A stretch of DNA of 64,000 bases from Alphaproteobacteria bacterium (GCA_013288335.1 JABDCC010000005.1:1313-65312); one strand, 5' to 3'. Positions 15,410 through 64,000 are shown, counted from the stretch's first letter. Made by a program: numbers and translations. The notes: generated by a model from the sequence alone, not told the origin.

Positions 15410-15960
15410 CCCCAATTCGGCGCTGATTTCTTATATTCAGCAAAACTCTGCTGAGCTTTATCACGCTCGGAAATCGTGGGGTTAGTGATTGGCCATTTGA
15501 TGCCTATTTCCGGATCGTCATATTTTATGCCGCCTTCGCCAACTGCATTATAAACACTCGTTACCTTGTAAAGCATATCGGCAGGCTCATCCCCGAGCAC
15601 ACAAAATCCATGCGCAAATCCAGGTGGAATCCAGAATAGCTTGCCATTCTCACCGGTAAGCTCAATACCATAATATTTGCCAAATGTTTTGGACTGCGGG
15701 CGAATATCCACAGCGACATCCCACACTTTGCCTCTTATGACGCCAACCAGTTTTCCTTGTGGTGGCGCATACTGATAATGAATTCCGCGCAAAATCCCGG
15801 GCGCTGAACGCGAGTGATTATCCTGCAGGAAAATATGCGGCAAGCCTGCTTCGGCAAAACGCTTCACATGAAACCGCTCAACAAAAAAGCCGCGCGCATC
15901 ACCATGTACGTCCAGCTCTATAATTTTTAACCCTTCAAGTTCGCAATCACTTATTTTCAT
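15406..15960 (-). CDS. rfbC: dTDP-4-dehydrorhamnose 3,5-epimerase
   Basis: 184 aa cupin with the motifs DARGFF, LRGIHYQ and GFAHGF. Confidence 0.93.
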
Positions 15961-16829
15961 TTTTTCTTTAACTCCATGCAGGCGGTGAGGCCTTCTTGCC
16001 AGCTCGGCATTGTAATATCAAACGTGGATTTAATCTTACTGCAATCCAGCCGTGAATTATGCGGACGTTTGGCAGGCAACGGATATTCAGTGGTTGGAAT
16101 TGGCAGGATATGGCGGACTTTTACTGGCAAATCAAGATCTCTTGCATATTGCACGATTTCAATCGCAAATCCATACCAGCTGGTAACCCCTTTGTTACAC
16201 ATATTATAAATTCCTGAAGGAAATTTGGGAAGTTTAAGGGCGGCATCCACTATCATTAATATAGCTCTCGCAAGGTGTCGTGCATAGGTAGGTGCGCCAA
16301 ACTGATCATTAATGATGCGCAATTCTTCACGCTCACTTGCGAGCCTTAAAATTGAATTTAGAAAATTTCGCCCTTCCGCGTCATATACCCAAGAGGTACG
16401 AAAAATAAGATATTTACCGCCCACCCGCGCAATCGCGTCTTCACCGGCAAGTTTAGAACGCCCATATGCATTCAGCGGCTCCGGAGAATCATCTTCTCTC
16501 CAAGGAATATCACCACTGCCGTTAAACACATAATCAGTGGAAAGATGTACGAACGGAATATGACGACGCGCGCAGTAAATCGCCATGGCCGCAGGAGACT
16601 GTGAATTAACAATAGTTGCAAGGCTTTCCTCAGACTCTGCATTATCCACGCTCGTATATGCCGCTGCATTGATGACTGCATAAGGATCATACTGCTCTAA
16701 TATTTCCGTAAGTTTATGGGGATGCGACAAGTCTGCGATGCTGCGTTCCAAAAAAATTGCATTGGGGCGAAAATGCCGGATTGCCTGCGCGAGCTGGCCA
16801 CGTGAGCCTATTACAAGGAGCGGCTTCAT
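15957..16829 (-). CDS. rfbD: dTDP-4-dehydrorhamnose reductase
   Basis: 290 aa with an N-terminal Rossmann GSRGQL, STDYVF and YGRSK. It has 4-bp overlaps with both neighbours. Confidence 0.92.
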
Positions 16830-17701
16830 TTCTCTGCCTCTGCTACCAGTTCGCTCAAATAAGATCCGTAATGGCTTTTAGTATTTGCTGCCGCGAGTGT
16901 TTTGAGCTTTGCCAGATCAATAAATTTTTTGGCAAATGCTATTTCTTCCAAGCATGCCACTCGTTGCCCCTGACGTTGTTCGATTGTCTGCACAAATTGC
17001 GCTGCCGCAAGCAGTGAATCCGGTGTTCCCGTATCAAGCCATGCAGCGCCCCTGCCCATTAACTCTACATTAAGATTACCTTGTTTAAGATAAACATTAT
17101 TTACATCGGTAATCTCAAGCTCGCCGCGCGCCGAAGGTTTCATGTTCTTTGCAATCTGTACCACCTGATTGTCATAAAAATAAAGCCCGGTGACGGCAAA
17201 ATTAGATTTCGGATTTTTCGGTTTTTCTTCAATGGAAAGTGCTTTGCCGGATTTATCAAACTCAATCACGCCGTAACGCTCCGGGTCTTTTACGCGGTAA
17301 CCAAATACGGTAGCGCCGCTTTTAAGCGCTGCCGCTTCTTCGAGCTGGGCGGTTAAAGATTGTCCAAAGAATAAATTATCACCAAGCACCAGACAGACAG
17401 GAGAGTTACCGATAAATTCCTCACCAATGAGGAATGCCTGCGCAATACCTTCCGGCTTTGGCTGCGCTTTATAGGAAAGTGTGATGCCCAGCGATTTTCC
17501 ATCGCCAAGTAATTCCTCAATCATCGGCAAATCACGTGGGGTGCTGATAATAAGAATTTCCCGGATTCCTGCGAGCATTACCAGCGAAAGCGGGTAATAA
17601 ATCATGGGCTTATCGTAAATCGGCAGCAATTGCTTGCTGATGGCATTTGTCATCGGTGAAAGCCTTGTGCCAGAGCCGCCCGCAAGAATAATTGCTTTCA
17701 T
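16826..17701 (-). CDS. rfbA: glucose-1-phosphate thymidylyltransferase
   Basis: 291 aa beginning [17 protein letters not shown], with LGDNLF and other motifs typical of RmlA. Confidence 0.95.
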
Positions 17702-17725
17702 GGAATTTCCTTAATTAAAGCAGTT

Positions 17726-55835: not shown

Positions 55836-57467
55836 ATGATTATTGCGTCAAACGACATAAATGCAAAATTACAGAAATTTTTATTGCGTAGTTTTACCTT
55901 TATCTGCGTGATAGCTGCTCTGGCAGCGCCACAGGCACAAGCCGCAAGCACTTTTCTTCTCCAGCTTGGCTCATTTGATTCAGAAACCCAGGCCTCACAG
56001 AAGTGGGATGAAGTAAAAGCAAAGAACGCGGACGTACTTGGCAGCTTTAGTCTCCATATTTCCAAAGTATCCATGCCGCCTGATAATGCCGTTAGCTACC
56101 GCGCTCAGGTAGGCCCCGTTGATTCTTACGATAAAGCTTCCAAAATTTGCACTAAATTGCAGAATAATGGCAATGAATGCTATATCGTTGAAACCGCACT
56201 TTTAGCTGACGAAACCTCTGCTCCAGCCACTGCTTCTACTCCAACACCTGCTCCTGCAGCTTCGTCTGAAACACCCGCACCGGTTGCCACTGAAACTGTT
56301 ACCGATGTGGTGGTTGCCGATCGCGCTCCTAAATTCCTGGACGATGAATCAGCACCAGCGGCAACAACTGTAGCACAAGCTCAACCTGCTCCTGCTGCAC
56401 CCGTTGCACAAGCAGTACCTGAAGAAAACGCCTTCCCCCATGCAACCAAGGCAATGGTAGCAGCACCAGCGCCAGTGGTAACTTCAACACCTGCAGCACC
56501 CGAGACAGTGGCACAGAATGATGCTACTGCGTCTTCTCCCGGAGCTTATGTACCCGGACGTGAACCTAAATTCTTAGACGATGATATGTCTGCTTCACAA
56601 CCCGCGCCAGTAGTTGCCGCCGCTGAACCAGCTCCCGCTGCTCCTGCGCCTTCAGAAAAACCTGGTTTCTTTGGCCGCTTGTTTAGCAGCAAATCTAGCA
56701 CTCCGCCTTCTACAGTCAGTGGTACGGAGCCAGCTGGTAATGTAGAGGTAGCTGAAGCCATACGCGTGCCGCTTACCAAGGATAATTCCACAAGTTCAGC
56801 GAAATATGCTGTTCCTGCAATTCACGGGCTTGGCGGATTGCCAAATCAGACGATGGATAAAACCTACTGGGCACAGCTTACCTATTTTACTGACGAAGCA
56901 GCCGCACATAGTTTCTATGATCAGTTCCACGCAAATTACCCGCAACTCACTGATAATGTGCGAGTGCGTGTGACTCGTCCTTATTCGTATATTAATCGCC
57001 CGGGCCATGTGTCTCTGCGCATGGGGCCATTTGCGACTATACGCGATGTAAAAACATTGTGCTCTGTAGCAGCACAGCAACATCTGCGTTGTACCTCAAT
57101 TAAAGATGTTGGCTCGTCTGTTGCAGCAAATCTTCCTCGCACAGTGGCAACAAAAACTGCCAGCATATACGCTGCTGCAAGCAGCGCGACTATAGTATCC
57201 AGCAATAAATCTGGTGTATATTGGGATCAGCTAGGTACTTATGCTTCTGCTGATGAAGCATGGGACAGATGGCAAAGCATTACCGAAGGCAAAAAGAAGA
57301 CCTTTGGTAAAATCAAAGCAACCGTTACTACCCCACAAAACAGCAGTGCGGATCATCCGGTATACCGCCTGCGCGCTGGTCCATTTACCAGTGAGGCTGC
57401 GGCTAACTCGATTTGCAATAAGCTTTCCAATGTGGGTGAGAATTGCCTGGTTATAAGTGAGCATTGA
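55836..57467 (+). CDS. SPOR-domain protein (three SPOR-like modules, Pro/Ala-rich linkers)
   Basis: 543 aa with a signal peptide. SPOR-like starts are FLLQLGSFDSETQA, YWAQLTYFTDEAAA and YWDQLGTYASADEA. Each module ends in a '(R/L)R(A/M)GPF' motif, and the first in 'AQVGPV'. Confidence 0.8.
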   Translation: MIIASNDINAKLQKFLLRSFTFICVIAALAAPQAQAASTFLLQLGSFDSETQASQKWDEVKAKNADVLGSFSLHISKVSMPPDNAVSYRAQVGPVDSYDKASKICTKLQNNGNECYIVETALLADETSAPATASTPTPAPAASSETPAPVATETVTDVVVADRAPKFLDDESAPAATTVAQAQPAPAAPVAQAVPEENAFPHATKAMVAAPAPVVTSTPAAPETVAQNDATASSPGAYVPGREPKFLDDDMSASQPAPVVAAAEPAPAAPAPSEKPGFFGRLFSSKSSTPPSTVSGTEPAGNVEVAEAIRVPLTKDNSTSSAKYAVPAIHGLGGLPNQTMDKTYWAQLTYFTDEAAAHSFYDQFHANYPQLTDNVRVRVTRPYSYINRPGHVSLRMGPFATIRDVKTLCSVAAQQHLRCTSIKDVGSSVAANLPRTVATKTASIYAAASSATIVSSNKSGVYWDQLGTYASADEAWDRWQSITEGKKKTFGKIKATVTTPQNSSADHPVYRLRAGPFTSEAAANSICNKLSNVGENCLVISEH

Positions 57468-57537
57468 TTTTTTGGTAAATAAATACTGTACATAAAAAAT
57501 CAGTTTGCTATATAAAACACCTCTTTTTTTGCCATAT

Positions 57538-57612
57538 TCCGCGGTAGCTCAGTGGTAGAGCAATCGGCTGTTAACCGATCGGTCGTAGGTTCGAGCCCTA
57601 CCCGCGGAGCCA
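57538..57612 (+). tRNA. tRNA-Asn (anticodon GUU)
   Basis: Hand-folded 75 nt. Acceptor TCCGCGG/CCGCGGA, anticodon stem ATCGG/CCGAT with loop CTGTTAA, T-arm GTAGG-TTCGAGC-CCTAC and an encoded CCA. Confidence 0.92.
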
Positions 57613-57619
57613 AAAAAGA

Positions 57620-57655
57620 TTAGCAGATTCAGAATCTGCTAACCCATTTTTGTTT
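57620..57655 (+). terminator. intrinsic terminator after tRNA-Asn
   Basis: An inverted repeat TTAGCAGATTC/GAATCTGCTAA (57620-57642) is followed by CCCATTTTTGTTTG. Confidence 0.7.
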
Positions 57656-57701
57656 GTGGTAAACGAGAGTTAGGTGATTCACAATTTTTACTGCAATAAA
57701 A

Positions 57702-59849
57702 TCAGTTTCTAAACGTCGATATCAAGTTATATGCGCGCAGTAAATAAAACTCATTATATAAACGGTCATCCGACATATAAATGTCTTTCAATTCCGGTCT
57801 CAGCACATCCTTCTTATCTATACTATGTAATGATGCAGCAGCAATTTCTTCAAGTGACTGATCAGGCAACCATTCTTCTATATCTTTGGCAGCTTTAGGC
57901 GGCAGGTTCTTTATGAACTGCGCCTTTGTAAGCTCCGGCAAAGGGACGTCTGACGCCAATATATGAATGCCTGTATTCTTTTCAATTGCATCATACAATT
58001 TTACATATTTAAATTGCTTATAAATTGCATTTAATGCTGCATTCACAAATACAGTGGGTCTGTTATCAGGAATCCATTGTTGTAATATACCACCCGGTGC
58101 CAAACGCAACTTTACCGCTGTCAGAAATTCGGTAGTATAAAGCAACCCACTTCCCGCAGCTTCAATAGGTGGAGGAGGATCCAGTATAATAATATCGTAT
58201 GTATCCCCCGAACGATTCAAAAAACGCCTTCCATCATCATTAACGATATGAACGCGTGGATCCGTCAAAACACGCTCGGCATCAGAATAAAAGTAACTGA
58301 ATGATTTAAGAACCCCTTTGCTAAGTTCAACGGCAGTAATGGAATCCAGTGGCCACGCAGTTAATGATCGCACCGTCGTTCCCATACCAAAACAAATAAC
58401 AAGTGCTGATTTGGCATCCGGATGATGCAGCAAAGGTAAATGCGCCATATTTTTGGTAACGTTATTAAGCGTAGTCATTCCGACACCATTCACCGTTAAT
58501 ATTTTGTCCAGGTTTTTTCCTAGCGCGCCAATGTAACCTATATGATCCCGCGTAAGCATCCCGTTGCTTTTTATGTGATCTTCGTAATTCGGCATATAAA
58601 AGGAGGTAAATAGTATCAGTATAAATAAAGCTAAAGCCTTTATTCTGTGGATATTAACATCGCGAAGCATGAAATAAGAAATAGGCAATAACATGAAAGC
58701 ATACGCAATAAGGCTTTCTTTAATACCTGCTACCGGAAATAATATATAAGTGGTAAAAACGGGGCCAGCAATACACCCCAGACAATTATACATATAGGCC
58801 AGAGATATATTGCGGGTGTTGTTACCACAGGCGTTATCGATAATTTTTGGTGTTAAATATCCAAAACAAAAGCATAATGGCGCTATGGATAAAACGACAA
58901 GCTGAGGAAAGCATTGCAGTACAACAAATGAAGTGGCCATAATGGGCAGAAGTGCAAATATTGGCAACCAAGTAATAATAGTATAATACAGGCTTATATT
59001 ATTTAAATTTTCCCGGTACATCTTTGTACCAAACGCAGTGCAAATCAAATAAACAGCTAAAATAATAGCAAATGAGTACACTGTAGAGCCTAGCGCAAAT
59101 ATAAATGATTTTATCCAGACTACTTCACATCCAAGCGTTACAAAACCAAAGGCGAATAATATTAAAATGACCGAGAAGGGAATTCTTCCAGATCCCACCT
59201 TATCTGGTGAATCAATTGTTGCAGACTCAGTAATGGCAAAATCAGGTAATGCGCATAAAGCAAGAATCGCTACAATAATATTGAGCGCTACTGTAATTTG
59301 CAATGTGTACTGAAAACCGTAAAGCTCAATAGAAACACCAGGTAAAACACAGCCAATCAAAGCTCCGCAGAGATTAGCATAATAAAGAAAACTAAAGATT
59401 CTATCCTCTTTTTCATTGTTTTGAATACACCGCATGAGAAATGGAAATGTACTTCCTATCAATGTACATACGGGCAGTAATATGATCGTTATAAAAAGGC
59501 AGGAATATAATAAATAGCTCCCGGACTGCATCTGCCCTGAGTCTAAGAGAAATAAATACCCTTTCTTAAAAAAGTAAGGAACCGTAAATGCCAGACCACC
59601 AATAAGCGCTTCTACCATAGCATAGAAAATCAAGGCAAGACGCGGAGATATGATATTGGTTATCCTGCCGGAGAGAAATGTGCCAAGTGCTAAACCCAAC
59701 ATAAAAACGCTAAGCACTGCAGAACTGATGGGAGTAATAACGCCAAAATACGTCATAGCCTGACGAAGCCAGATGGTTTGGTAACTGATAGACGCAGCGC
59801 CGGAAATAATAAAACACAAAAATGCAATGCGCCTAATGGAAAAAAACAT
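57702..59849 (-). CDS. polytopic membrane protein fused to a spermidine-synthase-like (aminopropyl/methyltransferase-fold) domain
   Basis: 715 aa. The N-terminal ~400 aa carry more than 10 hydrophobic segments. The C-terminal domain has ALVICFGMGTTVRS, AVELS, DDGRRFL and YDIIILDPPPP, as in SpeE-like enzymes. Confidence 0.8.
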   Translation of the reverse strand: MFFSIRRIAFLCFIISGAASISYQTIWLRQAMTYFGVITPISSAVLSVFMLGLALGTFLSGRITNIISPRLALIFYAMVEALIGGLAFTVPYFFKKGYLFLLDSGQMQSGSYLLYSCLFITIILLPVCTLIGSTFPFLMRCIQNNEKEDRIFSFLYYANLCGALIGCVLPGVSIELYGFQYTLQITVALNIIVAILALCALPDFAITESATIDSPDKVGSGRIPFSVILILFAFGFVTLGCEVVWIKSFIFALGSTVYSFAIILAVYLICTAFGTKMYRENLNNISLYYTIITWLPIFALLPIMATSFVVLQCFPQLVVLSIAPLCFCFGYLTPKIIDNACGNNTRNISLAYMYNCLGCIAGPVFTTYILFPVAGIKESLIAYAFMLLPISYFMLRDVNIHRIKALALFILILFTSFYMPNYEDHIKSNGMLTRDHIGYIGALGKNLDKILTVNGVGMTTLNNVTKNMAHLPLLHHPDAKSALVICFGMGTTVRSLTAWPLDSITAVELSKGVLKSFSYFYSDAERVLTDPRVHIVNDDGRRFLNRSGDTYDIIILDPPPPIEAAGSGLLYTTEFLTAVKLRLAPGGILQQWIPDNRPTVFVNAALNAIYKQFKYVKLYDAIEKNTGIHILASDVPLPELTKAQFIKNLPPKAAKDIEEWLPDQSLEEIAAASLHSIDKKDVLRPELKDIYMSDDRLYNEFYLLRAYNLISTFRN

Positions 59850-59913
59850 TCAGACCCCTTATGTAAATCATGGTGCTAAATACTTATTAAAATAATATTG
59901 CTATAGCAATATA

Positions 59914-60627
59914 CTACTTATCCAGCTTATCCGAAACCACGAGATAGCCACGGTATATGCCATCACCATCTTTCGTATTCATCGCCGCGTGCATCAGCGA
60001 CACAGGTACCCAGAACCAGGGGTTCTTGTGGCCCGCAACATCCATTACCAGACAGGAATCAGTCTCAGGGTGATAGGCAACAATCGGTGAGAAATGCCCG
60101 CCTCCCTCGCGCCCTAGGGTTTTGCTATCAAAATTAGCAATCACAAAGGTTTGGCTTTCATTTAAGTAAGCCATTAAATCGTGCCGAAAACGCTTTATTA
60201 AGACATCTGAGCTGGTTTTAGTTTCAATAATATTTACATCGAGTAAAAGCAGTCTGAGTTTTCTGCCTAAATCACCGAGTGCAAATCCGGGATCAAAACC
60301 TTCCTCGCATTTTCCTTCTACTTTTTTACGTGATTTTCCCTGCTCTTTACGTGCGTCAAAGAAAGTAATCTGTGTATAGCAGTTAAATGCCATTTTACCT
60401 TCACCCGGTAATTGTACATCGAGCTTTGTCTCTAGTGTCAGACCTTTTTTGCGTAAGCGTAACGCGTTTAAAACCATGACAGAGCTTGCGATGCCGCAAT
60501 AGGTAGGTTTTATCTGGCGTTCAAATAAATGTGCAAGCGCATAAAAATGATTCGCATACTGCGATTCAAAAAGCCGCCTCTTGCCTTCTTTGGTATTCCA
60601 GAAAATAAGCTTTGGCTTGTCGTTCAT
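59914..60627 (-). CDS. phytochelatin-synthase-like (half-size, papain-fold) protein
   Basis: 237 aa with the catalytic Cys context KPTYCGIASSVMVLNAL. The His/Asp context GGHFSPIVAYHPETDSCLVMDVA...WVPVSLMHAAM matches the conserved N-terminal PCS domain from memory. Confidence 0.75.
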   Translation of the reverse strand: MNDKPKLIFWNTKEGKRRLFESQYANHFYALAHLFERQIKPTYCGIASSVMVLNALRLRKKGLTLETKLDVQLPGEGKMAFNCYTQITFFDARKEQGKSRKKVEGKCEEGFDPGFALGDLGRKLRLLLLDVNIIETKTSSDVLIKRFRHDLMAYLNESQTFVIANFDSKTLGREGGGHFSPIVAYHPETDSCLVMDVAGHKNPWFWVPVSLMHAAMNTKDGDGIYRGYLVVSDKLDK

Positions 60628-60643
60628 AACTAATCCAGAAAAA

Positions 60644-61759
60644 TTATATGGTGCGGGAAGTTTTACCTTTTGCCTTCAAATCTGCAACCCGTGAGAACTT
60701 CTCTTCTGCCGTATGTGCCATCTGATTCTGTGGTAATATTTTATCCGCATCACTAACCGGCGCACGTGTATTTACATCTTCACCTTGATTAAAGTAAGGA
60801 CTATTAATACCACTTAATTTATTTTTTATTATCTCTACATCACTCATGCCATTAAACGTTTCTCGGATGAGTGTATCCATAACCTTCGCTTCTTCTGCCT
60901 CAGGTAAATGCTTAGTAATCGTGTTATGTACTTGTGTGTATATTCCCGCGAGTTGATCCACGGCTTTATCTATAGCGTCTATTCTCGGGTTACTAAATCC
61001 ATTATCTCGTGCAACTTCGGTACAATTTTCCTTAAAATAATCAAGAGCAGTCCCACCGTAATAACGTATACCAAGCTCGCGATCATAACCATGCCCATCG
61101 AGGATAAGTTGTGCTTTTTGCATAGGACTAAGGTTAGTAACTGCGAATTTACTTTCCTCATTGGTTGACACTGTAATCGCCGGGACTTTTTTATTTGTAT
61201 CGCCTGCTAAATTCACATCTGCCACCTGAAATTTATACATGCCAAATTTATCTTCATCCTTGCCTTTTAAAGCATCAAATTTTGACTTTGCAGTTTTATC
61301 AAACAAATCCTCAACAGTAATTCCAGTCGGAGGATTACCCAATTCACGGTTAATATAAGCTGTGAGTGAAGCTTTCATATCTTCTGTACTTGCAGTAATA
61401 TTAATGCCTTCAGCATAGCCATCTTTGTTAGCTGCAGGCTGAAGCCCGGCATAAATACCTATATTTGCAAATGGTTTTTCCTGTCCATTTTTATCGATAT
61501 AGGTCCCGCGAGTGCCACGAAATTCATACTCTCCGGCAGCCAGTACATTCATATCCACCTCCATACCGGGAAGGCGTGCTTTTTCATTGGGAATTTTACT
61601 GGAGCTTTCAGGTTTTTCGTTGGTATGAACTTTGATAAGCGAAGCATAACCAAAAAGGCGGCTGATACCATCTCCTGCGCGAACCTCTTGTTCGTATTTT
61701 GCCAATACTTCAGGCAGTTCCGACCATTTCGTGGCTTCATATTTGATAGGAGAAGTCAT
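60644..61759 (-). CDS. hypothetical protein (ORFan)
   Basis: 371 aa soluble-looking ORF, 16 bp upstream of the PCS-like gene on the same strand. I recognise no domain. Confidence 0.7.
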   Translation of the reverse strand: MTSPIKYEATKWSELPEVLAKYEQEVRAGDGISRLFGYASLIKVHTNEKPESSSKIPNEKARLPGMEVDMNVLAAGEYEFRGTRGTYIDKNGQEKPFANIGIYAGLQPAANKDGYAEGINITASTEDMKASLTAYINRELGNPPTGITVEDLFDKTAKSKFDALKGKDEDKFGMYKFQVADVNLAGDTNKKVPAITVSTNEESKFAVTNLSPMQKAQLILDGHGYDRELGIRYYGGTALDYFKENCTEVARDNGFSNPRIDAIDKAVDQLAGIYTQVHNTITKHLPEAEEAKVMDTLIRETFNGMSDVEIIKNKLSGINSPYFNQGEDVNTRAPVSDADKILPQNQMAHTAEEKFSRVADLKAKGKTSRTI

Positions 61760-61810
61760 GTATATCCCTTACAATAGCCAATATCTTATCAGAACAACCT
61801 TAATAAATAG

Positions 61811-63571
61811 TTAAATAACCACATCGCCTTCGAGGAATTTCCGTGGATTATAGCTAAAATCCTCGGCTGCAGCCGTGTTATCCGAGATTAAATCGCGGTT
61901 CATACGCAAGGCAATATCTGCGTTTAAATCCGGCAACTGGTAGATGATCCCAAGAAAGCTGAGTATTGCCGAAAAAGCAGGGATTTTAATGAGGCGCGCG
62001 GGTTTGCCTATATACTCAAATAATTTCATTAGCATATCATGATAAGTAATAAATTCATCACCACCAAGATTATATGTTTTTCTGTAAGTCACAGGATTAT
62101 CAATTATTGCAATTGCAGCATCGGCAATGTCCTGCGCATTTACCGGATTTCGGACACCTGAACCTTTTTTATAAATCACCAGTTTGCCAAAGCGCCGTAT
62201 AATATCCGCCATTCTTGCAATACTGCTTCCGAAGCCGACTCCGTAACAAATATTGGGGTATAATGTTGTCATGTCCGGTATATTATTTACTTCGGGTTCA
62301 GGCAGCGATTCAGGTTTTTTAAATATATGTTCCGAATCAAAAGCAATCACACGTGTAATGCCCTGCTCTGTAAGTTTGGAAGATATTTTCTCCAGCAATT
62401 CAAACTTTGCTGCATGAATCAATACATCGGCTTTAATTTCCGTAAACGCAGCAATATCCTCCTTGTAAGAAAAATTAATTTTCCGCCACGTTAAATTTGG
62501 ATGAGAAAATGCAACATGCGTGAGCTTATAAGTAGCAATCACATGCGCACCTTTGGCCAATGCTTTGCCAACTACACACATACCGATTTGCGAATCGGCG
62601 CCAGTGATTATAATGGTTTTGCCAGCGAGCGAGTTATCCTGCGGCGAAAACTGTGTAAGTTTATACAGCAATGCAATGCGTGCTATTTCATTTTTAGCCG
62701 TCATAGGTGGTACAAACGCGCGATTTAGCGTTCCTATGACTATCTTCAGCCAGCAACGCACCATTATACCAATCCGCATAATACTGAGCAGAAGTTTTTG
62801 TTCGCTGAAATGTTTGTTAAGGTAGAGTATAAAACCTTTAGCCTTTTGCTTCTCAATGAAAGAACTTGCCACTTCACTGGTACTTCTGAAATGCATCACT
62901 TTGACACTCGGTATGCAGATAACTTTTCCACCCGCTTTATGCACGCGATAGCAGAAATCCGTATCTTCCATATGCAGAAAATAATCTTCATCAAAGCCAT
63001 CTAGGCGTTTATAAAATGACGCGGCAATACACATAAATGCGCCGGAAATTACCGGCACTTCATGCGTATTTTCCGGCATAGGCAAACGATTAAAATTTAG
63101 ATTTTCAAATTTTTTAGAAATACGGTTGAAACCTAAACTTTCCACAATACCGTTCATCGGTGTAAGGAGTGCTCGCCTTCCTCCACGCTGCTCACTGCCG
63201 TCGGGATTTTGTAGAAAACATCCGGCGAGTGTATTTTCAGGATAGGTTGCTATTTCGGCAAGTAACTGTGCAATCGCACCGCCTGGCAGCATACTATCTG
63301 GATTGAGCAATAATAAATAGTCACCGATGGCTTGCGAAGCCGCAAGATTACAGGCTTTACCAAAACCTATATTCCCTTGCCCCTCTACAATCTTTAGTCG
63401 TGGTTCCTTAGCCTCTAACTCCCGCAAATGTTTTTCGTCGCCCGGGATATTACCGTTATTTACCAGCAAAATTTCTGTGCATTCTGGCTGTGCTAGCGCA
63501 GATGAAATGGCAAGCCACAATGTTGGGCCGGTGAAATAACTGACGATTATAATACTTACTGAAGAGGTCAT
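61811..63571 (-). CDS. family-2 glycosyltransferase fused to an NAD(P)-binding extended-SDR (epimerase/dehydratase-like) domain
   Basis: The start at ATG 63571 follows the SD AGGA; the ORF extends to 63586. The N-terminus has the GT2 motifs VSIIIVSYF, LLLLNPDS and HMEDTDFCYR. A hydrophobic segment follows, then the Rossmann motif IIITGADSQIG. Confidence 0.8.
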   Translation of the reverse strand: MTSSVSIIIVSYFTGPTLWLAISSALAQPECTEILLVNNGNIPGDEKHLRELEAKEPRLKIVEGQGNIGFGKACNLAASQAIGDYLLLLNPDSMLPGGAIAQLLAEIATYPENTLAGCFLQNPDGSEQRGGRRALLTPMNGIVESLGFNRISKKFENLNFNRLPMPENTHEVPVISGAFMCIAASFYKRLDGFDEDYFLHMEDTDFCYRVHKAGGKVICIPSVKVMHFRSTSEVASSFIEKQKAKGFILYLNKHFSEQKLLLSIMRIGIMVRCWLKIVIGTLNRAFVPPMTAKNEIARIALLYKLTQFSPQDNSLAGKTIIITGADSQIGMCVVGKALAKGAHVIATYKLTHVAFSHPNLTWRKINFSYKEDIAAFTEIKADVLIHAAKFELLEKISSKLTEQGITRVIAFDSEHIFKKPESLPEPEVNNIPDMTTLYPNICYGVGFGSSIARMADIIRRFGKLVIYKKGSGVRNPVNAQDIADAAIAIIDNPVTYRKTYNLGGDEFITYHDMLMKLFEYIGKPARLIKIPAFSAILSFLGIIYQLPDLNADIALRMNRDLISDNTAAAEDFSYNPRKFLEGDVVI

Positions 63572-63602
63572 GCAAATCCTATACACGACTCATTGTATGC
63601 AA

Positions 63603-64000
63603 CTAGTTGCCATTGAGCAATTTCTCAATTTCTTCCTGGGACAGAGCTTTTTCAGGTTGGGGAGGAACATCCGCGGGATTGGGTGGCGTATTTTCTGTCA
63701 CCGGCGGTTTTATATCTTGATCATTATAGGCTACGGTCGCCATTGTTTTTACTTTAGAAGGAATGATTTCATCAAATCCGTCACCCTGCACATCCTGACC
63801 CGCCGCCTGATCGGTAGTTGGTATTTCCTCCGTGGGACGCTTTGCCTCCATGGCAGCATTGGCCTCCTGCAGGCTTTTCATGATTGTGTCTAAATCATTA
63901 GCAGAAATTACCGGATTCTTGCGGTGCTTAAGCTGTTCTGCCGGATCTTCGTCATCGGGCAACCCCGAATTCTCATCCTTCGGCAACAACCTGTCATCAA
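63603..64000 (-). CDS. hypothetical acidic, proline-rich protein (5' end probably outside the window)
   Basis: The reading frame stays open upstream of the TTG at 63989 to the window edge. The sequence is low-complexity, acidic and Pro-rich, with no recognised domain. Confidence 0.45.
   Translation of the reverse strand, partial: DDRLLPKDENSGLPDDEDPAEQLKHRKNPVISANDLDTIMKSLQEANAAMEAKRPTEEIPTTDQAAGQDVQGDGFDEIIPSKVKTMATVAYNDQDIKPPVTENTPPNPADVPPQPEKALSQEEIEKLLNGN

Follow-up and report, generated by a model that had tools for sequence, protein, structure and literature searches.

A gene block beside tRNA-Asn in an alphaproteobacterial genome: a probable juxtaposition of separate units that includes a highly divergent ChaC-like protein

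The stretch of DNA analysed here (the window) comprises 64,000 nucleotides from an alphaproteobacterium (GCA_013288335.1, JABDCC010000005.1:1313-65312), which corresponds to G000:C5:1313-65312 in the notation used below, G000 being the source assembly (1.47 Mb in 67 contigs, estimated at 67% completeness, 44.5% G+C). At 57702-63586, beside a tRNA-Asn gene, four closely spaced open reading frames (ORFs) encode a fusion of a family 2 glycosyltransferase with a short-chain dehydrogenase/reductase half (GT2-SDR), a 371-amino-acid (aa) protein first labelled an 'ORFan', a half-size enzyme resembling phytochelatin synthase (PCS), and a polytopic membrane protein that ends in a SpeE-fold domain. We conclude that the block probably consists of three functionally separate units that came to lie side by side, specifically in this lineage, at a synteny breakpoint. 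The first unit would be the GT2-SDR fusion, the second the 371-aa protein, which proves to be ChaC-like, together with the PCS-like enzyme, and the third the membrane SpeE fusion. The features of the locus are as follows:

57702-59849, minus strand: fusion of a polytopic membrane part and a SpeE-fold domain, 715 aa (NF037959 and Spermine_synth)
59914-60627, minus strand: half-size PCS-like enzyme of papain fold, 237 aa (PF05023)
60644-61759, minus strand: divergent ChaC-like protein, the former 'ORFan', 371 aa (structure and profile comparison)
61811-63586, minus strand: GT2-SDR fusion, 591 aa, with a GTG start (Pfam GT2 and Epimerase/RmlD_sub_bind)
57538-57612, plus strand: tRNA-Asn (GTT) (ARAGORN; Rfam RF00005, 71.8 bits)
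57617-57645, both strands: hairpin of 10-13 pairs with a T-run on either strand (terminator scan)
63603-64000, minus strand: 3′ part of the gene for an acidic 206-aa protein, which runs on to window-equivalent position 64223 (full ORF at L010 7916-8536)

The four ORFs all lie on the minus strand and, read from 57702 to 63586, are separated by gaps of 64, 16 and 51 bp; the nearest of them lies 89 bp from tRNA-Asn. This layout had been described in the initial annotation, and it is borne out by the ORF coordinates and, for the tRNA and the terminator, by ARAGORN, Rfam and the terminator scan. The domains that it assigned to the GT2-SDR fusion, the PCS-like enzyme and the polytopic SpeE-like protein were likewise recovered by Pfam and NCBIfam. 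The tRNA was the only match of the Rfam scan, and the terminator scan of 57400-64000 returned no other minus-strand intergenic terminator-like site. The hairpin at 57617-57645 is therefore best read, from its sequence and position, as a predicted terminator common to tRNA-Asn and the minus-strand gene array.

The distribution of the four genes carries the conclusion that they form separate units. An order-wide count over 300 genomes found the PCS-like gene in 66 of them, close relatives of the SpeE fusion in three (G096, G254 and G052) and the 371-aa ChaC-like gene in two (G093 and G104); wherever more than one of these three genes occurred in the same genome, they were on different contigs. 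Among a separate set of 40 relatives, the full-length GT2-SDR fusion was found in about 19 (30-57% identity, 57% within the genus) and the PCS-like gene in seven, with no match for the 371-aa gene and no full-length match for the SpeE fusion. The neighbourhoods of the SpeE fusion were collected from 71 genome loci (one genome per species, from Acidobacteriota, Verrucomicrobiota, Planctomycetota, Elusimicrobiota, Myxococcota and others) and from three metagenome loci, 74 in all. At none of the 71 further genome loci did the flanks, searched over up to 10 kb, contain a PCS-like, a ChaC-like or a folC gene, and the three metagenome loci, which hold the nearest metagenomic homologs (49-54% identity), lacked a PCS or ChaC-like neighbour. 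When the 1023 flanking ORFs of the 74 loci were clustered, no family recurred in more than five loci. The closest homologs of the PCS-like protein (66-69% identity) have ordinary core genes around them, of parC/gyrA type, gpsA, HAD and gshB, one of them standing two genes from gshB. In same-genus genomes, the only member of the block held in common was GT2-SDR, at another locus.

These counts bear directly on the initial reading of the block, in which the four genes, or five with the acidic-protein gene, make up one operon that encodes a new pathway for an envelope thiol-polyamine or glycoconjugate. The shared strand, the gaps of 16-64 bp and the lack of an internal intrinsic terminator before the 57617-57645 hairpin are just what a true operon would show, and they count against our own reading to that extent; moreover, all four products are enzymes or enzyme-like proteins with small-molecule or envelope substrates. 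Yet neither their co-occurrence nor their adjacency was seen anywhere else. The initial annotation had itself made its pathway depend on co-occurrence of the genes in other genomes and on neighbourhood conservation of the PCS-like and SpeE-like pair; since no co-occurrence was found in the 300 genomes or the 74 loci, where the pair were never neighbours, the proposal falls on its own terms. The individual genes speak against it as well: GT2-SDR is tied to rml genes in most relatives outside the genus, the SpeE-like domain lacks the Asp specific for decarboxylated S-adenosylmethionine (dcSAM), the corresponding decarboxylase was not found in genomes that carry orthologs, and a periplasmic location is predicted for the SpeE-fold domain but not for the PCS-like and ChaC-like proteins, which are without signal peptides. 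We consider a single pathway of this kind highly improbable. A narrower candidate, in which the ChaC-like and SpeE-like proteins would be linked through gamma-glutamyl-polyamines, was rejected on the same grounds of absent co-occurrence and different predicted compartments. All genes of the block may still share a transcript with the fol genes upstream, down to the terminator at tRNA-Asn; such co-transcription would mirror gene packing and would not imply a common pathway. The block thus offers a caution that tight spacing beside a tRNA gene does not amount to a pathway, three of the four supposed parts having separate evolutionary histories.

The gene for the acidic protein, which the initial annotation had counted as the fifth of the block, is indeed present and ends at 63603, 31 bp from the first ATG of GT2-SDR (63571), as had been stated, but 16 bp from its GTG start. 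Upstream of it on the same strand follow folC, folP, folK and folB, and in two same-genus genomes (G002 and G003) a homolog with 39-41% identity also stands directly after folC. Gene order would therefore assign it to the folB-folK-folP-folC cluster as its conserved last gene, outside the block. The 206-aa protein is Pro-rich and without a Pfam match, and its position after folC is kept in three species of the genus.

The same comparison locates the seam at which the block lies. On one side, two genomes of the same genus, G002 and G001, share the ilvD-SPOR-tRNA-Asn segment; on the other, folB-folK-folP-folC and the acidic-protein gene are kept in G002 and G003. Next to this second segment comes queA, directly in G003 and, in G002, with a few kb of further ORFs in between. 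The site of the block appears, on this gene order, to be a breakpoint that joins the two segments. Variation beside tRNA-Asn within the genus, which had been anticipated, was found: the contents of the flank differ between G000, G001 and G002, and in G001 the tRNA is followed by unrelated genes. In G002 (L046 6295-18000, on G002:C6), tRNA-Asn is directly followed by a phage-type integrase gene (Arm-DNA-bind_3 / Phage_integrase), and the ORFs after it read as type I restriction-modification genes, judged from their first residues only. The flank in G002 is a classical tRNA-Asn island; the window does not contain one.

The base composition of the block had been taken to be AT-richer than that of the core genes. 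The G+C contents of its four genes (38.8, 43.6, 40.4 and 41.8%) do fall on the low side of the genome mean (45.0 ± 3.8% over 1148 long ORFs), but they occupy the 7th to 31st percentile of genome ORFs, the core gene folC is equally AT-rich at 40.8%, and codon-usage distances are ordinary. The block is therefore not separable from the core genome by composition. The suggestion of a tRNA-integrated island also found no sign of mobility to build on: no integrase or transposase was detected by Pfam among the ORFs of 57.6-64 kb, and the whole assembly was searched without success for a direct repeat of the last 14-30 nucleotides of tRNA-Asn, with up to four mismatches allowed.

A weaker form of the island reading deserves separate consideration. 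The three genes between 57.7 and 61.8 kb, for the ChaC-like protein, the PCS-like enzyme and the SpeE fusion, could be unrelated horizontal cargo of a degraded tRNA-Asn island, whose integrase and attachment repeat were lost later. Such an account would fit the differing flanks of the same tRNA-Asn in three species, with an integrase and type I restriction-modification genes in G002, as well as the lowish G+C content. It would also fit the lack of SpeE-fusion and ChaC-like orthologs in all six other genomes of the family and the fact that the PCS-like protein is 36% identical to the PCS-like protein of G002 as against 57-59% to those of other families. It has to contend with an assembly in which no integrase, transposase or tRNA 3′-end repeat was detected, with G+C content and codon usage inside the core range, and with a folC gene that is just as AT-rich. 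Furthermore, the three genes share 54-69% identity with their best homologs, which does not exceed the level among core proteins within the genus, and patchy loss of old genes therefore fits equally well. We regard a degraded island as decidedly unlikely.

Turning to the individual units, the GT2-SDR fusion is the member of the block found most often among the 40 relatives. It matches Glycos_transf_2 (PF00535; E = 1.1e-15, 58.5 bits against a cut-off of 23.3), and the NPD and HxEDxD motifs of the GT2 half are invariant across 11 orthologs. The match to Epimerase is modest (28.3 bits against a cut-off of 20.9) and covers only the N-terminal part, and there are weak matches to a rhamnosyltransferase model (TIGR01556) and to RmlD_sub_bind. 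The TGxxGxxG and YxxxK motifs that define classical and extended SDRs are not found in the SDR half: its Gly-rich loop is degenerate (TGADSQIG), and the conserved motif YGxGFG has no Lys at +4. With the Tyr kept and this Lys missing, the SDR half is atypical.

In eight of 11 relatives outside the genus, rmlC, usually together with rmlD, lies immediately upstream of GT2-SDR (tblastn; L020-L026 and L028), and in G004 the fusion follows rmlA, rmlD and rmlC, as confirmed by Pfam. Within the genus the arrangement is different. In G002 and G003, GT2-SDR stands between a gene for an AddA-type helicase-nuclease and the GGDEF and recR genes; in G000, the AddA-type, GGDEF and recR genes are on contigs other than that of GT2-SDR. 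The genus seems, from this gene order, to have split an ancestral rmlA-rmlD-rmlC-GT2-SDR array, and the fusion itself appears to be a conserved, vertically inherited core gene of the order. Because it stands behind rmlD and rmlC in eight of the 11 relatives, the fusion is probably a dTDP-rhamnose-dependent (deoxythymidine diphosphate-rhamnose-dependent) rhamnosyltransferase of an envelope glycan, the sugar being deduced from the rml linkage. It would use dTDP-rhamnose made by RmlACD, and in most of the order it would be the last gene of an rmlA-rmlD-rmlC array. A role in thiol or polyamine metabolism is most likely absent. The window has its own rmlA, rmlD and rmlC genes at 15421-17710 on the minus strand, 46 kb from GT2-SDR. 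Stand-alone paralogs of the SDR half also occur, one in the source assembly (G000:C61:911-1810, 44% identity to residues 306-591) and another in G003 (C4:80450-81325).

The second unit contains the protein whose identity was least apparent. Sequence searches of Pfam, NCBIfam and the Protein Data Bank (PDB) with the 371-aa protein returned nothing meaningful, and it had accordingly been labelled an 'ORFan'. That label does not stand, since a collection of 5.8 billion proteins contains 14 homologs with 38-59% identity and the family has recognisable ChaC relatives. A profile hidden Markov model (HMM) of the family recovered 28 clusters among 1.84 billion representative proteins, and found no bridge to canonical ChaC among them; none of 15 family members matched PF04752, even at E ≤ 10. 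A first lead came from the family alignment, in which the N-terminal FGYASLI resembles the FGYGSL of ChaC. An AlphaFold (AF2) model built on this alignment (pLDDT 87.9, pTM 0.86) was then compared with the PDB by Foldseek. The ten best matches were all to glutathione-specific gamma-glutamylcyclotransferases of ChaC type, either human ChaC2 (6ky1, 6ky0, 6k95) or yeast ChaC (5hwi, 5hwk); their E-values run from 8e-7 to 8e-5 and their TM(target) values from 0.62 to 0.77, at a probability of 1.0, and GGCT (2rbh) came next.

Profile-profile comparison gave a concordant result. Aligned by hhalign, a 27-sequence family alignment and 19 ChaC sequences gathered from other genomes of the class matched over 178 columns (Prob 97.9%, E = 6.3e-13), pairing residues 27-272 of the 371-aa protein with ChaC positions 41-218, which take in almost all of the ChaC domain. 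Against E. coli ChaC alone the probability was 9%, and the correct motifs were aligned nonetheless. In these alignments FGYASL (residues 36-41) corresponds to FGYGSL, RGT to RGT, the R138-E139 pair, invariant in the family, to the 'RE' of ChaC, and GG(S/T)ALDYF to G-N-x-x-YL; Glu139 thus occupies the place of the Glu that we take to be catalytic in ChaC. The protein consists of a ChaC-like domain at about residues 27-272, with an insertion of about 30 residues after Glu139, and then a helical tail. As judged by profile and predicted structure, it is a very divergent protein of the ChaC family with a gamma-glutamylcyclotransferase fold, and belongs to a small, unannotated subfamily. A gene without annotation in the databases would in this way define a small gamma-glutamylcyclotransferase subfamily, through a homology that was exposed only by structure search and profile-profile comparison. 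Of 100 genomes sampled across the class, 54 contain canonical ChaC (PF04752), which was not found in G000, G002, G003, G004 or G039.

Several homologs of the ChaC-like protein (P0243, P0244, P0247 and P0248 in alignment A2) carry N-terminal signal peptides of the twin-arginine translocation (Tat) type. Part of the family is therefore probably exported in folded form to the periplasm, which would be unusual for a ChaC-type enzyme. In another lineage (L136 8114-9139), two ORFs come after the ChaC-like homolog on its strand, a small one of AstE_AspA_cat type, which is deacylase-like, and one of 180 aa; the AstE_AspA_cat-type neighbour could be an alternative partner there.

The other member of the second unit is a clear PCS-type protein. 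It matches the Phytochelatin family (PF05023) with E = 6.9e-38 (130.4 bits against a cut-off of 24.9), and its best PDB match is Alr0975/NsPCS of Nostoc (E = 1e-27), with which its catalytic triad aligns as Cys (YCGIAS), His (GGHFSP) and Asp (MDV). The chain stops straight after the catalytic domain, at residue 237, and the C-terminal Cys-rich domain of eukaryotic full-length PCS is missing. A signal peptide is lacking here and in the nearest clade (237-259 aa), and is borne by more distant relatives in the order. NsPCS hydrolyses glutathione to gamma-Glu-Cys and Gly (PMC12065762), and by analogy the PCS-like enzyme is likely to do the same.

The ChaC-like and PCS-like genes are separated by 16 bp, and both products, being without signal peptides, are predicted to be cytoplasmic. 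A second, independent adjacency was found at L056/L057, where a ChaC-like homolog with 43% identity lies 12 bp from a gene with a PCS domain, in convergent orientation and in an otherwise different context. If a genome of the order carries about 0.27 PCS genes on average and is assumed to have some 1,800 genes in all, the estimated chance of such an adjacency is about 3e-4 per context, and that of one replicate among eight other contexts about 2e-3, for what is a single replicate. It is thus unlikely that the second adjacency arose by chance. The initial annotation had remarked in passing that the 'ORFan' might partner the PCS-like gene. This remark gains from the ChaC homology and from the second adjacency; the functional coupling that it implies is thinly supported.

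From their homology and conserved residues we infer, with moderate confidence, that the two proteins would be coupled and would carry out a two-step breakdown of glutathione. The PCS-like enzyme would strip Gly from glutathione to leave gamma-Glu-Cys, and the ChaC-like enzyme, through its FGYASL loop and Glu139, would cyclise the gamma-glutamyl moiety to give 5-oxoproline and Cys. Alternatively, the ChaC-like enzyme would act on glutathione itself and release Cys-Gly. Either way, the pair would provide a route from glutathione to cysteine in a genome in which canonical ChaC was not found. The ChaC enzymes characterised so far are reported to be specific for glutathione and not for gamma-Glu-Cys, so the order of the two steps is a guess.

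That reported specificity is one of several points that weigh against such a pair. The PCS gene at L056 lacks its first 60 or so residues, the catalytic Cys included, and the adjacency occurs in just two of about nine independent contexts: no PCS neighbour was found beside the ChaC-like gene at L054/55, L135, L136-138 or L139, on an 8.1-kb JGI contig, or in G093 and G104, the last two of which carry the ChaC-like gene with no PCS match in the genome. A metagenome scan for more ChaC-like loci gave three loci only, apparently on contigs already examined. Furthermore, neither gshB nor the 5-oxoprolinase subunit gene PxpA (PF03746) was found in G000, an assembly of 67% completeness; gshB is present in G002, G003, G039, G089 and G052.

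The two genes might therefore be neighbours by chance and have no functional connection, each acting alone, for example the ChaC-like enzyme on glutathione in the manner of ordinary ChaC and the PCS-like enzyme on glutathione S-conjugates or in metal handling. Most ChaC-like homologs are without a PCS neighbour, in the order the PCS-like gene, present in 66 genomes, is mostly unaccompanied by the ChaC-like gene, present in two, and the Tat signals of some ChaC-like proteins and the signal peptides of many PCS-like proteins suggest that the families are not tied to one compartment. Set against this are the independent adjacency at L056/L057 in another orientation and context, the 16-bp gap with both proteins predicted to be cytoplasmic here, and the expected shared target of the two enzymes, the gamma-glutamyl-cysteine part of one metabolite. 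A lack of coupling is a possible account, but on balance an unlikely one. The most specific version of the coupled reading is an undescribed route from glutathione to free cysteine, with Gly released in a first step to leave gamma-Glu-Cys, which is then split into 5-oxoproline and Cys, in small-genome alphaproteobacteria without canonical ChaC, in which the ChaC subfamily would have shifted its specificity to gamma-Glu-Cys. We put this forward tentatively, and in that full form it is itself rather doubtful. The two-step breakdown nevertheless supplies a concrete hypothesis for the role of the PCS-like enzyme, namely glutathione breakdown or cysteine salvage and not metal chelation; if it is true, half-size bacterial PCS-like enzymes would gain the physiological role that they have been missing.

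The third unit, the membrane SpeE fusion, matches Spermine_synth in Pfam (E = 1.9e-17) and NF037959 (46.1 bits against a cut-off of 40), and falls far below the cut-offs of equivalog models that include TIGR00417 and NF002010 (83.6 against 260, 68.5 against 472 and 64.7 against 249.55 bits). A match to the major facilitator superfamily (MFS; PF07690) spans residues 10-363 at 21.1 bits, under the gathering cut-off of 33.4. More than 500 full-length homologs with 38-55% identity, some of them named 'fused MFS/spermidine synthase', come from Acidobacteriota, Verrucomicrobiota, Planctomycetota, Myxococcota and Alphaproteobacteria. In the AF2 model (pLDDT 90), the soluble domain is most similar by Foldseek to aminopropyltransferases (1uir, 3o4f, 1inl and others; E ~ 4e-10). 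Thirteen hydrophobic membrane segments precede the SpeE-fold domain, which starts at residue ~420. A count of 11 Lys and Arg residues on the N-terminal side against five on the other would place the enzyme domain outside the cytoplasm, by what is a crude combination of hydropathy and the positive-inside rule.

The active site departs from that of E. coli SpeE at two positions. GGGDG is replaced by CFGMG, with Asp changed to Met489, and DCTDP by DPPPP, which retains the catalytic Asp557 but has Pro560 for the second Asp; of the three acidic residues that are hallmarks of aminopropyltransferases, two are thus missing. All 21 homologs compared, which come from several phyla, share Met489 and the DPPPP residues without variation, and the family motifs ICFGMGTT, DDGRRFL and DPPPP are invariant as well. 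The ribose-binding Glu, the DDG motif and Asp557 are retained. The Met would stand in place of an Asp that binds dcSAM through its aminopropyl amine and keeps out S-adenosylmethionine (SAM), and the Pro would replace a second substrate-binding Asp. The Asp of GGGDG is thought to repel the carboxylate of SAM, and its replacement in a plant spermidine synthase (D103I) abolished spermidine synthase activity and created methyltransferase activity (PMC3725402). Beyond the SpeE fold, a nearly invariant C-terminal motif, (S/T)DDRxYNE(F/Y), occupies residues 694-705 and has no counterpart in solved aminopropyltransferases.

Searches for the SAM decarboxylase AdoMetDC gave no match to PF02675 in G000, G002, G003, G052, G096 (99% complete) or G254 (95% complete), and G096 and G254 carry orthologs of the SpeE fusion. 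This negative covers PF02675, the PF01536 search having had a silent control, and it is uninformative for G000, which is 67% complete. AdoMetDC was not a neighbour of the fusion at any of the 74 loci. A full-text search of the literature returned nothing on the fused MFS/spermidine synthase family or on PCS in Rickettsiales. As far as its sequence goes, the SpeE fusion would be a stand-alone member of the widespread and uncharacterised family NF037959, and not a canonical aminopropyltransferase. Given the changes of Asp to Met and of Asp to Pro, together with the predicted periplasmic domain, the fusion is more likely to be a transferase that uses SAM and acts on an amine of the envelope than a polyamine synthase.

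The protein could nonetheless be a genuine aminopropyltransferase engaged at the membrane in polyamine synthesis or modification, with dcSAM supplied by an undetected decarboxylase or by a host. Its fold and best sequence matches are those of aminopropyltransferases, and the ribose-binding Glu, DDG motif and catalytic Asp are conserved. Some membrane fusions that resemble spermidine synthase are also reportedly linked with AdoMetDC genes, as the title of a 2019 article by Li et al. has it. This account must be set against an invariant Met489 in place of an Asp whose loss abolishes spermidine synthase activity, a Pro in place of the second substrate Asp, a SpeE equivalog score far under its cut-off, the lack of a PF02675 match in five relatives, ortholog carriers among them, and the lack of an AdoMetDC neighbour. 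We judge it very unlikely. The data on the SpeE fusion add to the case that 'fused MFS/spermidine synthase' proteins are not polyamine synthases, a case built on the loss of the dcSAM Asp, the failure to find a SAM decarboxylase in genomes that encode them, the lack of a conserved neighbour, and the predicted outward-facing domain; this matters wherever polyamine metabolism is annotated automatically.

The closest homolog of the SpeE fusion (55% identity; L051 4314-10217, Ga0558081_0011275) adjoins a folC-like gene and a folB-folK/P-def cluster, and a second, divergent SpeE-fusion paralog lies across folC at the same locus. With fol genes near the SpeE fusion in two lineages, that of the block and that of L051, some of this linkage may be old and not accidental, which counts against a simple juxtaposition. 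A functional link to folC, present at just two of about 75 loci, was rejected.

Each of the units can be set beside a known system. Like the GT2 rhamnosyltransferases of rml-linked loci, the GT2-SDR fusion has NPD and ED-x-D motifs and, in eight relatives, rmlD-rmlC directly upstream. It differs from these enzymes and from RmlD and the extended SDRs in that its two domains are covalently fused and the Lys of YxxxK is missing, and in this genus the gene has come to lie away from the rml genes.

The ChaC-like protein shares its fold with the ChaC enzymes (E. coli ChaC, human ChaC2 6k95/6ky1, yeast Gcg1 5hwi; PF04752), and has in common with them the FGYxSL loop, RGT, 'RE' and G-x-x-x-DY(F/L) motifs. 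It differs in its low identity of about 12%, with no Pfam match at any threshold, in a change of Gly to Ala in the YGSL motif, in the insertion of about 30 residues and a helical C-terminal extension of about 100, and in belonging to a tiny family of which some members carry Tat signals. The PCS-like protein resembles NsPCS/Alr0975 (Nostoc sp. PCC 7120, 2btw) in its papain-like domain, its Cys-His-Asp triad and the lack of a C-terminal Cys-rich domain, and on the identities given above (36% to G002, 57-59% to other families) it is not an ortholog of the PCS-like protein of its own genus.

Compared with NF037959, the SpeE fusion has the same architecture and shares the family motifs, and is distinct only by its rarity in its own order (three of 300 genomes). 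Its SpeE domain has the same fold as SpeE of E. coli (3o4f), T. maritima (1inl) and T. thermophilus (1uir), including the N-terminal beta-hairpin domain, but it is fused behind 13 membrane segments, is predicted to be extracytoplasmic, has the second substrate Asp replaced by Pro within the invariant DPPPP, and bears the extra C-terminal DDRxYNEF. In the replacement of the GGGDG Asp by a hydrophobic residue it is like putrescine N-methyltransferase (PMT), to whose plant representatives it is not related by descent.

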